Source: Alphaproteobacteria bacterium (GTDB lineage Bacteria; Pseudomonadota; Alphaproteobacteria; MPNO01; UBA830). From it: a stretch of DNA of 64,000 nt. Location: contig OZ251539.1 in NCBI GenBank assembly GCA_965243135.1, positions 4,864,001-4,928,000 on the forward strand, in the 5' to 3' direction. The notes under the pieces are model-generated. The model searched no databases. It saw only the letters and a program-made list of their open reading frames with translations, and had not been told where the DNA came from. Numbering within the stretch: position 1 is the first letter of the stretch; the number at the start of each line of letters is the position of its first letter. The position numbers were made by a program, and so were the translations under genes. Below are positions 15,005-20,365 of the stretch, piece by piece.

Positions 15005-15069
15005 TTGACACAAAAGCGTTTGTGTAAAGCAATTCCGCGATATACGTTACACAATCTGTTTTGCGTCAA
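15005..15069 (+). promoter_or_regulatory. two 24-bp imperfect palindromes (putative operators) upstream of the Fic gene
   Basis: TTGACACAAA-AGCG-TTTGTGTAAA (15005-15028) and GTTACACAAT-CTGT-TTTGCGTCAA (15046-15069). Confidence 0.6.
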
Positions 15070-15084
15070 ATAGACGAGACACAA

Positions 15085-16200
15085 ATGCAACCGTTCAGGC
15101 CGCAAGAGCTCCCGATCAGGGATATCGAATGGGAACCTCTTATCCCGCTGATAGGGCGAGCCAACCGTTCGCTCGCCCTCTATGACGGGATTCTGCATAG
15201 CGTGCCCAACCCCGAAGTCCTGTTGTCTCCGCTCGCGACCCGGGAAGCGGTGCTTTCGTCGCGCATAGAAGGTACGCAGGCAACGCTCTCCGAGGTCCTG
15301 AAATCCGAAGCTGGCGAAGAACCCGAGCACGAAATGCGACGCCAGGACATCGTGGAGATCGTCAACTACCGCCGTGCGCTTCTCCACGGCGAAAAAGCGC
15401 TTGTCGGAAAGCCGTTCAACCTCAACCTGCTGCTGGAGCTTCACTCGATACTCCTCGAAAGCGCGCGCGGCCGAAACATGGGGCGAGGCCGGTTCCGCAA
15501 TGTCCAAAACTGGATCGGCGAATTCGATTCCCCGATCGAGCGAGCCGAGTTCGTCCCGCCGGCCCCGGAGGCTCTGATGCCCGCGCTGGACGCGTGGGAG
15601 AAGCACTACCACGCGGAATCCCCCGACGGCCTCGTCCAAATTGCCGTGATCCACGCCCAGTTCGAAATCATCCACCCCTTCCTCGACGGCAACGGGCGCA
15701 TCGGACGCATCGTGATACCGCTGTTCCTCGCGGAAAAAGGGCTCCTTTCGCGTCCGATGTTCTATCTGTCGTCGTATTTCGAACGGCACAGGGACGAATA
15801 CATAGCAAGGCTGCGCGAGATCAGCCGACGGAGCGACGGCTGGAACCGCTGGATAGGATTCTTTCTGCGCGCAGTCGAAAAGGAAGCGCGAGCGAACGCC
15901 GACAAGGCGAAAGCGATCATCGACCTCTACGCGGATCTGAAGGAGAGGGTGCTGGTTCTCACGCACTCGCAATACGCCATTCCGCTTCTCGACCAGATGT
16001 TCGAGCGCCCGCTGTTCGGAAGCAGGATGATTCGGTTTCCCGACGGCATCGCGCCGAGTCGGCAAGCCGTATCCGGTCTGCTTCGCCAGTTGCGCGACAA
16101 CGGCATACTGGAAGTCGTGCGGGACGCCCGGGGAAGACGCTCGCAAATCCTGGCCTTGGCCGAGCTCATCGACATCTGCGAACGTGAAGAGGCCGTTTAG
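15085..16200 (+). CDS. Fic/DOC family protein with C-terminal wHTH-like region
   Basis: EAVLSSRIEGTQ, HAQFEIIHPFLDGNGRIGR. Confidence 0.92.
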   Translation: MQPFRPQELPIRDIEWEPLIPLIGRANRSLALYDGILHSVPNPEVLLSPLATREAVLSSRIEGTQATLSEVLKSEAGEEPEHEMRRQDIVEIVNYRRALLHGEKALVGKPFNLNLLLELHSILLESARGRNMGRGRFRNVQNWIGEFDSPIERAEFVPPAPEALMPALDAWEKHYHAESPDGLVQIAVIHAQFEIIHPFLDGNGRIGRIVIPLFLAEKGLLSRPMFYLSSYFERHRDEYIARLREISRRSDGWNRWIGFFLRAVEKEARANADKAKAIIDLYADLKERVLVLTHSQYAIPLLDQMFERPLFGSRMIRFPDGIAPSRQAVSGLLRQLRDNGILEVVRDARGRRSQILALAELIDICEREEAV

Positions 16201-16936
16201 CGGCAATCCCCAGCGACCGGGCCGCCACGAAGAGGTCCGAGCGTTCTTCGTCGGCCAAAGCTTGTCGATGGCGCCCATAACTCCCCGACGCCGCAACGCC
16301 CGCGCATTCGTAGAGAGGCGCCCTTTCGACGAGCGCATCCTTCCTGCGGGCGCCGAACTTCGCGGCGTCCCATCGCCAGCCAAGTCCGCTCGCCGGAGAA
16401 CTCCGGCCGAGGGCGGCTCCGGAATTCCCCGTTCCCGTCAACCTGCTCGAAGCCGTCGACGTGGGGATAGGCGGACCGGAACCCGGCTCGGCGACCGAAC
16501 CGGAGTTTCTGATTTGAACGAAAACGAACGTTCGCGATTGCGGCAGAATTCGACGCGGAGGAGCGGCAAGCGCCGCCGTCCTGTGGACGGCGCTCCGGTC
16601 ATCGACAGGCGCGGTCGCAGCCGCCCGCAGGTTCGCCGGGCCCCGGGCGGGCTGTCCTGCGGGGAACGGGTCGAAAAAACGAGAGCGGATTCCGTGTCCG
16701 CATCGACAGGTTGGACAAGACGACGTCTCTGACGGGGCCGCTCCACGCCGAATCCTGCGCCCCGAAAGAATTTCGGAACGTTCCGCTGCGCTCGAGGCAA
16801 TGCTTTCCAAAACTCCAGTATAGCCGCAATGCCGTCGCCTTACGGCAATTGCAGGCCCGTTTTTCGTCCTACCGTAGGACAAAGGCCATAAAGCAACGGT
16901 CTCGGGCATAATCGAGCGGCCATGCCGCTGCCCGCT

Positions 16937-17197
16937 TCAGCGGCGCTTGTCGAAATACGCGAAGAGTTCCTCGGCGGTCCGGCTGGTTCTGACGTGGCCC
17001 CTCGCTTCTTGGAAGTCCTCGAGGTCGACGATGCCGTCGAGCATGGCCTTCAAGCGTTTTCCTGTTTCGTCGTCGAACCTTTCGGCCGCGAGATCGGCCA
17101 AGAGTTCGCGGCTCGCGGCCCTGAACCCTTCGGCCCGCGCGTCGGAGGCAAGGGCCCTTTCCACGGCTGCGTCGTAATGTTGAGCGAATCCGGTCAT
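16937..17197 (-). CDS. stand-alone copy 2 of the Rpn C-terminal domain (RpnS-like), 86 aa, 1 heptad repeat
   Basis: GGAGGA RBS then MTGFAQHYDAAVER...ELFAYFDKRR, near-identical to the C-terminus of 17718-19106. Confidence 0.75.
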   Translation of the reverse strand: MTGFAQHYDAAVERALASDARAEGFRAASRELLADLAAERFDDETGKRLKAMLDGIVDLEDFQEARGHVRTSRTAEELFAYFDKRR

Positions 17198-17285
17198 CGA
17201 TCCTCCAAGTGCGGTCTCGGGGGAGACCAACTCTGCAGCCGGGCGTTTTCGCAGTCCCGCGGTGTCGGCCGGAAAGACGCTCGCT

Positions 17286-17630
17286 TCATCGGCGCTTGTC
17301 GAAATACGCGAAAAGCTCCTGGGCGGTCCGGCTGGTTCTGACGTGGCCCCTCGCTTCTTGGAAGTCCTCGAGGTCGACGATGCCGTCGAGCATGGCCTTC
17401 AAGCGTTCTCCCGCTTCGGCGTCGAATCTTTCGGCCGCGAGATCGGCCAGGAGTTCGCGGCTCAAGGCCCTGAACCCTTCGGCCCGCGCGTCGGATGCCG
17501 CCGCCCGCGCGTCAGATGCCTTTGCTCGCGCGTCGGAGGCTTCGGCCCGTGCGTCGGACGCCTTGGCCCGCGCGTCGGAGGCAAGGGCCCTTTCCACGGC
17601 TGCGTCGTAATGTTGAGCGAATCCGGTCAT
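17286..17630 (-). CDS. stand-alone copy 1 of the Rpn C-terminal domain (RpnS-like), 114 aa, 5 heptad repeats
   Basis: GAAGGA RBS then MTGFAQHYDAAVER-AL-(ASDARAx)5-GFR...FDKRR. Confidence 0.75.
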   Translation of the reverse strand: MTGFAQHYDAAVERALASDARAKASDARAEASDARAKASDARAAASDARAEGFRALSRELLADLAAERFDAEAGERLKAMLDGIVDLEDFQEARGHVRTSRTAQELFAYFDKRR

Positions 17631-17717
17631 CGATCCTTCAAGTGCGGTCTCGGGGGAGGCCAACTCTGCAGCCGGGCGTTTTCGCAGTCCCGCGGTGCCG
17701 GCCGGAAAGATGCTTGT

Positions 17718-19106
17718 TCAGTGGCGCTTGTCAAAATATGCGAAAAGCTCCTGGGCGGTCCGGCTGGTCCTGACGTGGGCCGTCGCCTCCTGAAATTGTT
17801 CGGGGTCGACGATGCTGTCGAGCATGGCCTTCAAGCGTTCTCCCGCTTCGGCGTCGAACCTTTCGGCTGCGAGATCGGCCAAGAGTTCGCGGCTTGAGGC
17901 CCTGAACCCCTCGGCCCGTGCGTCGGACGCCTCGGCCCGTGCGTCGGAGGCTTCGGCCCGTGCGTCGGACGCCTTGGCCCTTGCGTCGAAGGCGTCGGCC
18001 CGCGCGTCGGATGCCGCCGCCCGTGCGTCGGAGGCGTTGGCCCTTTCCACGGCCGCATCGTAATGTTGAGCGAATCCGGTCATAAAAGGCACTCCTTTCA
18101 GCGCGGCTTCGGGAAAATGTCTGGCTCCCAGTGCCGCTGTCGTCATGAGAAGATGGCGTAACGGGCGATACTTGTCCAACGGAAGCAGCCTGTCCAGTTC
18201 CTCGGCGGCCCGGAGCGTGTCGGCGCGATCGCCCCGGCACAACCGGAAATAAGCCGCCGCAGGGTTGTCCCTGTAACGGGAATAATCCGTCCGGTGGACA
18301 TCCTGGACAGCGTACCGCACGTGCGGCCTGTGGTGGAAATCCAGCTCGGGCTCCTCCGGCGGATCCGCGAGGTCGTCCGCATCCCCCGTGGCGTTCCATG
18401 GCTGCGTTCCGGTATGGACGACCGTCGTAACGATGGAGGGGATCCGTCCGGTTGGGCCGACGAGCTCCGCATGGTTCTTGCGGATGGTCTGCCACAGCTC
18501 GCTGCGGTAGCAGCCCATGCGTTCCGCCATCCTGTGGTCGACGCCGGACTGGAATTCGACGACGACTACGACGGGCCGGCGGTCCCGCCGCTCCAGAACG
18601 AGAATCATGTCGCTGCGGAGGGTTCGGCTGAGCGCGTGGGAGACGAGTTCGCCGTCGATCCTGCGGATGACCGCATCGTCCGGCACCATGTGAGCAGGCA
18701 GGATCGTCCGCAGCAGGCCTCTCGCCATGACGGGATAACCGAAAGTGAACCGGGCGATCGCGTCGTGAGGATAGCGCCCCGGCATGCTCAGCAACTGCAA
18801 GGGCGTCCGCCCGCGTCCGTCCGGCAGGCCCGGGTTCGCGCCGCGTTCGACGAGAGCGGTGAAGTCCGCGTAGTTCTCGTCGCCGGCGGCGTAGTGAAGC
18901 GGCGAGAACCCCTCGTTGTCCGCGACGTCGAGATCGGCGCCGGCCGCGGCCAGAGCTTCGATGGCGGCCGTGTACCCGCAATCGACGGCGTGGTGAAGGA
19001 GCCTTCGACCGTCCGGTTCGACCGGATCGTTCAGCCGGTGGAACAGCTCCACGATGCTTTCCGGCGAACCTGTCCTGACGGCGTCGGCGAGCGTTCGTTC
19101 GTTCAT
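17718..19106 (-). CDS. ankyrin-repeat + Rpn/YhgA-like PD-(D/E)XK nuclease
   Basis: Ankyrin repeats (LLHHAVDCG, SPLHYAAG, GRTPL); Rpn motifs HD..., RSDMIL, VEFQSGVDHRMAERMGCY, VVHTGTQPW; C-terminal (ASDARAx)6. Confidence 0.85.
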   Translation of the reverse strand: MNERTLADAVRTGSPESIVELFHRLNDPVEPDGRRLLHHAVDCGYTAAIEALAAAGADLDVADNEGFSPLHYAAGDENYADFTALVERGANPGLPDGRGRTPLQLLSMPGRYPHDAIARFTFGYPVMARGLLRTILPAHMVPDDAVIRRIDGELVSHALSRTLRSDMILVLERRDRRPVVVVVEFQSGVDHRMAERMGCYRSELWQTIRKNHAELVGPTGRIPSIVTTVVHTGTQPWNATGDADDLADPPEEPELDFHHRPHVRYAVQDVHRTDYSRYRDNPAAAYFRLCRGDRADTLRAAEELDRLLPLDKYRPLRHLLMTTAALGARHFPEAALKGVPFMTGFAQHYDAAVERANASDARAAASDARADAFDARAKASDARAEASDARAEASDARAEGFRASSRELLADLAAERFDAEAGERLKAMLDSIVDPEQFQEATAHVRTSRTAQELFAYFDKRH

Positions 19107-20365
19107 TTCGTCGTCTCCTTGCGTTGTCTTTCCGACCCGGCCCCTGCCGTCTCCGGCGTCGCCCGCCCGCCGCCACCCCGTTTTGGCAAGCCGACTGCGT
19201 TCCCCTTTATACCATCGTTCTCCGTTTTACCATAGCGTGGATTGCCGCGTCCAGCTGAAATCGACGGACGCGCGAATTTCTGCTTCCGCGAGCGCGCGTC
19301 TTCCCCCGCCAATCTCGCGACCTTCTTCATCACCGTCGGCAACGCGTGATCCTCCAGCCTGCGGCACCAGACGCCTTCTATGCCGTCCGTCCGAGGCACG
19401 TGCGCCGCCAATACGGAAAGCTCCAGCCGGAAATGGGTGAAAGCGTGGCGCACGATTCCGTCGACCGGGCGCCAGTCCGCTTCGACCGGCGCTTCCTTCT
19501 CGGCGGCGGCGCGGGACCACCCCTCCTCGCGCCACGCGGTGGATGGAACCTCCATCAACCCGCCCAACAGGCCGTTTTCGGGCCGGCGGCGAAGAAGCAC
19601 GTCTCCATCCGGCGACGTGATCCAGAACGCGACCCCTCGCCGCGTCGGGAGTTCCGGTTTGGGGGGCCTGCGCGGCAGCGCCGCGGCGTCGCCCCGGGCA
19701 TGCGCGGCGCACGCTTCCTTCAGGGGGCAGACGGAGCAGGCAGGCGTTCCCGGCGCGCAAACCGTCGCCCCGAGATCCATGACGGCCTGCGCGTAGTCCC
19801 CGCAGCGGCTTTCCGGCGTCAGCGACGCCGCCATGTCGCGCAGAATCCTCTTCGCCGCCGGCAACGGCGCGTCGACCGCGAACAGCCGGGCCATGACGCG
19901 CTCCACGTTGCCGTCGACCGGCGTCGACCGGCGTTCGAACGCGATGGCCGCGATCGCGGCGGCGGTGTAGGGACCGATGCCCGGCAACGCTCGCAGATCT
20001 TCCTCGCGATCGGGAAACGCGCCGAGATCGACGACCGACATCGCGCATTTGTGGAGGTTCCGCGCCCGCGCGTAGTATCCGAGCCCCGCCCAGGCGTGCA
20101 GAACCTCGTCGAGGCTCGCGGCGGCGAGATCTCGGACGGTGGGCCACCGCCGAATGAACGTCTCGTAATAGCGCGCCACGGCGGCGGCCGTCGTCTGCTG
20201 CAGCATCACTTCGCTGAGCCATACCGCGTAGGGATCGGGCCGAATGCCCGGCGGAGCACGCCAGGGAAGGACGCGGCGCTTCCGGTCATACCAGGCGAGC
20301 AGCGCCCGCGCGCAATCTTCCGTTGCCCGGGGCGAGCCCGTCTCGCGCGTAAGTTGCTGATTCAC
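19103..20365 (-). CDS. mutY: A/G-specific adenine glycosylase
   Basis: WLSEVMLQQT, LGYYARARNLH, LPGIGPYTA, VDGNVERV, Fe-S motif C-x6-C-x2-C-x5-C; long non-conserved C-terminal tail. Confidence 0.95.
   Translation of the reverse strand: MNQQLTRETGSPRATEDCARALLAWYDRKRRVLPWRAPPGIRPDPYAVWLSEVMLQQTTAAAVARYYETFIRRWPTVRDLAAASLDEVLHAWAGLGYYARARNLHKCAMSVVDLGAFPDREEDLRALPGIGPYTAAAIAAIAFERRSTPVDGNVERVMARLFAVDAPLPAAKRILRDMAASLTPESRCGDYAQAVMDLGATVCAPGTPACSVCPLKEACAAHARGDAAALPRRPPKPELPTRRGVAFWITSPDGDVLLRRRPENGLLGGLMEVPSTAWREEGWSRAAAEKEAPVEADWRPVDGIVRHAFTHFRLELSVLAAHVPRTDGIEGVWCRRLEDHALPTVMKKVARLAGEDARSRKQKFARPSISAGRGNPRYGKTENDGIKGNAVGLPKRGGGGRATPETAGAGSERQRKETTK

Follow-up and report, generated by a model that had tools for sequence, protein, structure and literature searches.

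The 64,000-nucleotide window analysed here (positions 4,864,001 to 4,928,000 of contig OZ251539.1, assembly GCA_965243135.1, Alphaproteobacteria bacterium) carries on its reverse strand a gene for a nuclease of the Rpn family with N-terminal ankyrin repeats (RpnL), followed by two free-standing open reading frames (ORFs) that repeat the C-terminal module of that protein. Rpn proteins (RpnL) are described in the main text of Zhong et al. 2023 (PMC10400941) as toxic nucleases that are blocked by their own C-terminal domain, RpnS, made from an internal start. Both small ORFs and the 121-amino-acid (aa) C-terminus of RpnL, counted from the Met codon at 18083, were found to open with the residues MTGFAQHY. 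The features of this array, designated locus A, are as follows (window coordinates, with the strand in brackets).

17718-19106 (-): RpnL, an ORF of 462 aa with ankyrin repeats and an Rpn (YhgA-like PD-(D/E)XK) domain (ORF list, Pfam, BLASTP)
18792-19088 (-): ankyrin repeat region, residues 7-105 of RpnL (Pfam Ank families, Foldseek)
18264-18770 (-): PF04754 (Transposase_31) nuclease domain, residues 113-281 (Pfam)
18098-18092 (-): Shine-Dalgarno (SD)-like AAAGGAG 5' of the internal start (read directly)
17718-18083 (-): intragenic RpnS-type module, 121 aa from M342, six heptads, ATG at 18083-18081
17909-18043 (-): 21-bp tandem repeat (ASDARAx) within the first helix of the intragenic module (Tandem Repeats Finder, TRF)
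17631-17717 (-): spacer 1, 87 bp, its 3' part being the shared block CCCGAGACCGCACTTGAAGGATCG
17286-17630 (-): free-standing module copy 1, 114 aa, five heptads
17198-17285 (-): spacer 2, 88 bp
16937-17197 (-): free-standing module copy 2, 86 aa, one heptad

Judged by its sequence, the long gene is an ankyrin-Rpn family nuclease with predicted activity on DNA. Pfam identified PF04754 at 38.8 bits (cut-off 21) over residues 113-281 of RpnL and Ank_2 at E 2.6e-10 over residues 7-95, while BLASTP against RpnA of E. coli K-12, a weak alignment (E 0.001), placed D115, D166, E184 and Q186 opposite RpnA residues D11, D63, E82 and Q84. These matches agree with the identity given to the gene in a first-pass annotation made without database searches. 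Mutation of D11, D63, E82 or Q84 has been reported to abolish the phenotypes of RpnA (Kingston et al. 2017, PMC5350276), and D115, D166 and E184 were found to be invariant in all 17 family members. An AlphaFold2 (AF2) model of the full RpnL (predicted local distance difference test, pLDDT, 73) was made up of an ankyrin domain, a core of alpha/beta type and a helical region; a low-confidence linker at residues 328-357 runs across the internal Met, and a long helix (340-416) and then three short ones come after it. Foldseek with this model recovered ankyrin and designed ankyrin (DARPin) structures only. The ankyrin domain is probably a protein-binding or sensor part, and its fusion hints at a protein-sensing input for an Rpn nuclease; no such input was found described in the Rpn/RpnS texts consulted. 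Complex prediction for full RpnL with the 86-aa cassette gave a score of 0.29 (mark 0.32), from which no inference was drawn.

The three versions of the module at locus A are 86-89% identical, with the 114-aa and 86-aa copies sharing 89% and 86% of residues, respectively, with the 121-aa module. The two spacers, of 87 and 88 bp, are identical in 82 of 88 aligned columns, and TRF reported a 432-bp period repeated 2.1 times with 89% matches. The coordinates that the first-pass annotation had given for AAAGGAG (18098-18092), the Met at 18083 and the 121-aa product were all confirmed, as were its two downstream ORFs (17630-17286 and 17197-16937) with their own ribosome-binding sites and MTGFAQHY start and its conserved spacer of ~87 bp, and support was found for its view that an RpnS-type module had been amplified downstream, translation signals included. 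It had also set the duplication boundary at the internal start, and this requires correction. The start of the duplicated unit lies not at the internal ATG itself but ~22-30 nucleotides (nt) 5' of it, where the upstream block reads CCCGAGACCGCACTTGAAGGAT in the copies and CCCGAAGCCGCGCTGAAAGGAG within the long gene (16 of 22 nt alike); the SD or ribosome-binding region was therefore duplicated along with the module.

The translation signals of the internal start were found to be conserved. AAAGGAG and the ATG at 18083 define the 121-aa C-terminal product, and all 17 sequences compared share M342, G338 and L336, the last two of which are encoded by the SD-like AAAGGAG itself. The Gly codon of the LEG motif that encodes the SD is GGA in every copy, a codon making up 15.7% of Gly codons genome-wide; as the copies are related, this gives weak support to the SD. 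SD-like GAAGGA, AAAGGAG or GGAGGA sequences lie 5' of 10 of the 11 copies listed in the genome, those of the free-standing copies at locus A being GAAGGA at 17639-17634 (copy 1) and GGAGGA at 17206-17201 (copy 2). The lone exception is the third copy at a paralogous locus (locus C, described below), in which Lys replaces Met and a GTG lies one codon upstream. The low-confidence linker of the AF2 model falls exactly at the internal Met. Taken from these signals, the module is most likely also translated alone, as an RpnS, from the conserved internal SD and ATG.

No terminator-like site was identified in either spacer and no significant RNA fold was found in the spacers (spacer 1 z 0.23), which is consistent with co-transcription of the three genes but is no proof of it. 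A scan with Rfam gave no match at the locus, no sigma-70-like promoter was identified there, and the sole terminator-like match inside the rpn gene overlaps the SD. The 87 nt past the last cassette (16850-16936, -) are predicted to fold more stably than 199 of 200 shuffled versions (z -2.16), with no U-tract after them, and may represent a transcript end or a structured insertion boundary.

Assembly error was considered as a source of the array, in the form of a repeat collapsed or expanded in the reconstruction. The sequence is repetitive, and none of the short-read contigs extends across the array from end to end; nevertheless, the genome was assembled as a single 6.1-Mb contig, the copies differ at 6-13% of core positions, and in short-read contigs from three samples of one organism (X1, X2, X4) each distinct cassette 3' end and junction was covered with zero mismatches. 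An artefact, which the first-pass annotation had named as a possible refutation, is therefore extremely improbable. Near-identical sequence was also identified in sponge metagenome runs, of which one was compared and found to be 90-99% alike across the stretch. Joints seen in the short-read contigs (skips of 792 and 786, a step back of 722, and others) were rejected as rearrangements; the sequence between the two sides is that of the spacer at locus B, and locus C accounts for the loose end at 18083, so that the joints are due to cross-mapping from paralogous loci. A CRISPR-like reading was likewise discarded, since the units are coding cassettes of 260-345 bp. One contig from a sponge metagenome (X5 record 26) resembles a cassette holding fewer heptads and offers no more than weak evidence that strains vary.

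Searches of the whole genome revealed 16 PF04754 matches. The genome has four full ankyrin-Rpn paralogues, of which A (in the window), B and C each carry two free-standing modules and D carries none, and two of the eleven non-ankyrin PF04754 places examined were found to have downstream copies of their own C-terminus. The loci outside the window are given below.

C1:2731355-2733600 (-): locus B, ankyrin-Rpn array, modules of 93/86/107 aa, spacers of 56/56 bp
C1:5979591-5981422 (+): locus C, ankyrin-Rpn array, modules of 72/72/79 aa, spacers of 109/19 bp
C1:6100048-6102336 (-): locus E, classical Rpn gene with two back-to-back copies, unequal in number of EGRELGLS-type units
C1:165736-168290 (+): classical Rpn gene with a downstream copy of its DUF4351-like C-terminus
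C1:5976567-5977067 (+): broken ankyrin-Rpn fragment with one internal TGA, and a solo 72-aa module (C0), 2.5 kb upstream of locus C

A nuclease with two downstream copies is thus present at four loci (A, B, C and E) and one with a single copy at a fifth, which makes the genome a set of natural replicates of the arrangement. Two repeat chemistries occur: ankyrin-type genes carry heptads, and classical ones carry tetrads or octads of the EGRELGLS type. Repeat number varies among the members of most arrays. At B, C and C0 the last cassette is followed by truncated cassette heads (FLMTGFARHA..., running into unrelated sequence). Three near-identical classical Rpn paralogues (C1:2076060-2077092, 4060058-4061054 and 5641994-5643009, all +) have a nuclease frame of 158-166 aa that stops at the same residues, with the C-terminal module in another frame ~400 nt downstream; these are either frameshifted copies or examples of a shared split.

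Beyond this genome, no array was found among the relatives searched. The long protein had no close homologue in 40 relatives (best 27% identity over the Rpn part), and the classical module had matches in seven of 60 relatives, no two of them closer together than ~2 kb, and none of the 60 has such an array. Approximately 20 ankyrin-Rpn proteins, nearly all of them from metagenome assemblies, share the invariant Met, and the lengths of 20 of 23 free-standing small homologues fit 72+7k aa. Equal-sized longest contigs were reported for P0004 (long) and P0046 (small), for P0047 and P0052, and for P0044 and P0049.

The modules of the window are distinguished mainly by the number of units in one repeat. 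Counted from the conserved Met, those of locus A measure 121, 114 and 86 aa, differing mainly by whole 21-bp (7-aa, ASDARAx) units of which they hold six, five and one, a difference that the first-pass annotation does not mention, and TRF identified the two longer arrays as x6.4 at 17909-18043 and x4.8 at 17479-17579. The repeats begin at residue 17 after the Met, within the predicted long first helix, and the Ala residues at heptad positions 1 and 4 of ASDARAx are placed as in 'Alacoil'-type packing. Heptad counts in the order RpnL/copy/copy are 6/5/1 at locus A, 2/1/4 at locus B and 0/0/1 at locus C, and all length differences among the modules of these three loci are multiples of 7 aa (21 bp). 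The RpnL modules of the four ankyrin-Rpn loci are all of unequal length (121, 93, 72 and 103 aa).

Pfam and NCBIfam gave nothing meaningful for the small ORFs, and a module profile compared with PDB sequences likewise returned nothing meaningful (best E 0.15). On transitive evidence, the repeated module was assigned to DUF4351/RpnS as a divergent domain. When 1.84 billion representatives were searched with a profile built from 22 modules, 39 proteins were identified at E<=1e-3; the distant ones among them look DUF4351-like, showing (E/Q)G(R/K)x tetrad repeats ahead of LL.RQAARKF..... PF14261 (DUF4351) was detected in three of 15 scanned profile matches, at 25.8 bits (above the cut-off of 25) and at 24.9 and 23.9 bits (just below it), and one further scanned match is a PF04754 protein with the module at its C-terminus. 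Alignment of the module profile to two of the profile matches with hhalign gave probabilities of 95.7% (P0060, E 1e-8) and 94%. In the classical Rpn paralogues of this genome the C-terminus is clearly a DUF4351-like module, and one such module matches a locus B cassette directly (E 5e-6). The core R-E-L-L..L-A..R-F-(G/D)-x-E-T..R-L...L..I.D...L...... is common to DUF4351 proteins, Rpn C-termini and the window modules. The Pfam model itself fails to detect the window modules, which are linked to the family by the profile search and hhalign; it gave zero matches in 121 genomes of the class, this genome included, and so is blind to these modules. An RpnS may, according to the main text of Zhong et al., be a separate gene annotated as DUF4351 (PMC10400941). 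The profile matches and alignments thus favour the RpnS type that the first-pass annotation had proposed for the C-terminal module. Nineteen of the 39 profile matches (P0059, P0061, P0064, P0065, P0069, P0071 and 13 others) hold DUF4351-like modules in tandem, two or three to a predicted protein, with the nuclease domain absent; they represent either fusions of array members or modules joined by gene callers reading through an array, and indicate that tandem RpnS-type modules exist elsewhere too.

Pairwise substitution rates were estimated by the Nei-Gojobori method on a 57-codon core of the modules, in which the counts are small. The values for non-synonymous over synonymous rates (dN/dS) and for synonymous divergence (dS), with the modules of each locus numbered from that of RpnL, are as follows.

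A1-A2: dN/dS 0.17, dS 0.34
A1-A3: dN/dS 0.23, dS 0.37
A2-A3: dN/dS 0.18, dS 0.175
B2-B3: dN/dS 0.45, dS 0.106
C2-C3: dN/dS 0.23, dS 0.29

All six downstream copies at loci A-C have open frames and five of the six keep their SD and ATG. Old copies held under purifying selection are probably expressed, and the rates suggest that the downstream copies have been kept as proteins. The same values bear on the possibility that the arrays are functionless products of slippage or unequal crossover in repeat-prone Rpn genes, perhaps promoted by the nuclease itself. Such an origin would sit well with a genome so rich in Rpn genes (the 16 PF04754 matches), with broken copies and fragments such as the solo cassette and TGA-bearing fragment at C1:5976567-5977067, with the truncated cassette heads and with the third copy at locus C that lacks an ATG. 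It is, however, improbable in view of dN/dS values of 0.17-0.45 at dS values up to 0.37, intact frames in which every length change is a multiple of 21 bp, the recurrence of RpnL with two copies at loci A, B, C and E, and the free-standing homologues in other assemblies.

The best explanation of these results, to which a probability of about 65% is given, is that locus A is an expanded toxin/antitoxin-type defence locus of the Rpn family whose downstream genes are extra, expressed rpnSs paralogues. RpnL would be a toxic PD-(D/E)XK nuclease with an N-terminal ankyrin domain and a C-terminal DUF4351-like helical module, and the RpnS made from its internal start would, by analogy with E. coli, pair with the RpnL C-terminus through the heptad-bearing first helix and silence the nuclease. 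In E. coli the long first helix of RpnS is the dimer interface and carries 4-aa repeats, variable between strains, 8-20 residues after the Met (main text of Zhong et al., PMC10400941). Tandem duplication of a unit composed of SD, module and 3' flank would have produced two free-standing rpnSs-type genes, probably co-transcribed with rpnL and kept by purifying selection, with slippage or recombination in the 21-bp repeat giving each copy a first helix of different length. The extra copies would then supplement RpnS, or provide variants of it, and so buffer or tune the toxin. The adjoining Fic gene matches the SoFic defence model, which was counted in favour of a defence-type role.

Several observations weigh against this explanation. 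PF14261 gave no match to the window modules even at E<=10, the module profile failed to align with E. coli RpnA-S, and Foldseek with an AF2 model of the 86-aa copy (all-helical, pLDDT 80.4) found nothing in the PDB at E<=0.001, RpnA-S 7TH0 not being recovered. The modelled module is composed of a long helix and three short ones, whereas RpnA-S is a three-helix bundle. The gap from SD to ATG is short in the free-standing copies, at only 3-4 nt. Loci B, C and D lie singly among housekeeping genes, outside defence islands, although such solitary loci agree with the picture of rpn genes moving as single units in the main text of Zhong et al. The principal difficulty concerns repeat number, which in neither downstream copy matches that of RpnL at locus A (6 against 5 and 1) or at locus B (2 against 1 and 4). 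In E. coli an extra repeat in just one partner abolishes neutralisation (PMC10400941; PMC10400984), and a commentary (PMC10400984) expects variation in the repeats to keep paralogues from inhibiting one another in trans; if the same rule applies here, the mismatched copies would not be cognate antitoxins. This mismatch is the main point left unexplained by a set of extra rpnSs genes, and leaves room for a library of specificities.

In the form of such a library, the arrays would hold dimerisation helices of different length, serving either as recombinable specificity modules or in trans against non-cognate Rpn toxins or phage mimics. This is a speculative reading, and a rather doubtful one. 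Were it true, toxin and nested antitoxin would be switched together, possibly with the aid of a recombination-promoting nuclease, and a defence toxin-antitoxin pair would undergo programmed diversification at four or five loci. If pairing follows repeat number as in E. coli, the majority of the free-standing modules would be non-cognate, so their role is directly testable.

Related to this is the view that the downstream modules are mainly donors that replace the RpnL C-terminus by recombination between a conserved 5' block of ~66 nt, which spans the SD region and 14 codons from the start, and a likewise conserved 3' end comprising the last codons and TGAAGCGGGC. As RpnS is nested in RpnL, a module swap would replace both and reset the toxin-antitoxin pairing. 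Conserved blocks do flank a variable middle in all copies, the truncated cassette heads after the last cassette at B, C and C0 could be counted for it, and so could the repeat-number mismatch at A and B, by which the copies are unlikely to be cognate under the E. coli rule.

Trees gave further support for exchange. Within a locus the module cores share 87-98% identity, against 79-86% between loci, and the tree agrees, with cassettes grouping by locus. The nuclease part recovered a clade {P0004, B, P0005, C, P0006} with support of 100/100, which the module data rejected (approximately unbiased test, p-AU 0.0085) because the P0004 module groups with that of P0003; this discordance was obtained on a module of only 57 columns, and with a clade chosen after the module tree had been inspected, which counts against its weight as evidence for donors. 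For A and P0002, whose N-terminal parts are 90% and cores 70% identical, the shared clade (A1+P0002) was not rejected (p 0.335). The RpnL module of locus B and its first downstream copy have cores that are 98% identical (dS 0.025), and the third copy differs, which indicates recent duplication or conversion, and the 42-nt head of the locus A RpnL module is identical to the locus B heads, a stretch with too few sites to call gene conversion. From these comparisons module exchange is likely to have occurred during the history of the family.

At locus A itself, dS between RpnL and the copies (0.34-0.37) is about at the level found between loci, so that no exchange has taken place there recently. 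No transfer from donor to RpnL within strains was seen in the short-read contigs, the joints in these being paralogue cross-mapping and not rearrangements. All copies but one keep their own SD and ATG and are under purifying selection, unlike silent donors. A role mainly as donors is accordingly judged unlikely, and would in any case be compatible with the downstream modules being extra rpnSs genes.

The array sits between mutY and the SoFic-type Fic gene, as follows.

19103-20365 (-): mutY, at the upstream edge of the insertion, its stop overlapping the rpn ATG (ATGA)
15061-16200 (+): Fic gene, SoFic defence model match (PADLOC E 1.9e-106; Pfam Fic_N and Fic), given for context only

Similarity of mutY to four same-genus genomes was found to stop near 19298-19360, and a close ankyrin-Rpn gene was present in none of the four, so that the Rpn array looks like an insertion in this lineage. 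The mutY ORF extends ~60 aa past the end of similarity (window 19103-19360, -), and the insertion may have replaced the native 3' end of mutY.

Among known systems, silent-cassette systems of the pilE/pilS type consist of an expressed gene and partial copies of its variable 3' part, with conserved flanking blocks. The layout of the array is alike, but silent donors are copies without expression signals of their own, whereas five of the six copies here keep SD and ATG and evolve as proteins, with dN/dS well under 1. The TAEL repeat of EcoR124I/II HsdS, cited in the main text of Zhong et al. (PMC10400941), is similar in that the number of in-frame repeats in a helix sets specificity; there it governs the spacing of DNA targets and not toxin-antitoxin pairing, and a cassette array is absent.

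The nearest likeness is to E. coli, in which a second RpnS copy lies downstream of rpnE (ypaA, termed rpnESs) and, in some strains, of rpnC, each derived from its own upstream module (main text of Zhong et al., PMC10400941). The account of enterobacterial biology in the first-pass annotation, namely a toxic nuclease and an internally translated RpnS, agrees with that paper, while its statement that the architecture was undescribed does not stand, since free-standing rpnSs genes were reported there as single downstream copies. Like rpnE-ypaA and rpnC-rpnCSs, locus A encodes a nuclease of the PF04754 type in which the catalytic residues are conserved, and has a helical module at its C-terminus after an internal SD and ATG, a variable short repeat (starting at residue 17, within the 8-20 residues after the Met seen in E. 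coli) and downstream free-standing copies nearest to their own upstream module.

It differs in having two downstream copies where E. coli has one, 7-aa (21-bp) in place of 4-aa (12-bp) repeats, an ankyrin N-terminal fusion unlike rpnE or rpnC, a module with no direct sequence or Foldseek match to RpnA-S, and copies whose repeat numbers are unlike that of their own RpnL; the host is a bacterium of 65% GC with sequence in sponge metagenome runs. A literature search on Rpn/RpnS returned nothing beyond Kingston 2017, Zhong 2023 and its commentary. The two copies, the heptads, the ankyrin N-terminus, the recurrence at several loci and the finding of no such array in the related genomes searched go beyond the main text of Zhong et al., whose supplementary Figs S1B, S3 and S6 and Dataset S1 may already include multi-copy arrays or other repeat lengths. 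The genome bears on two questions raised in that text, namely how the repeats of RpnS expand and what the origin and role of the downstream rpnSs genes are.

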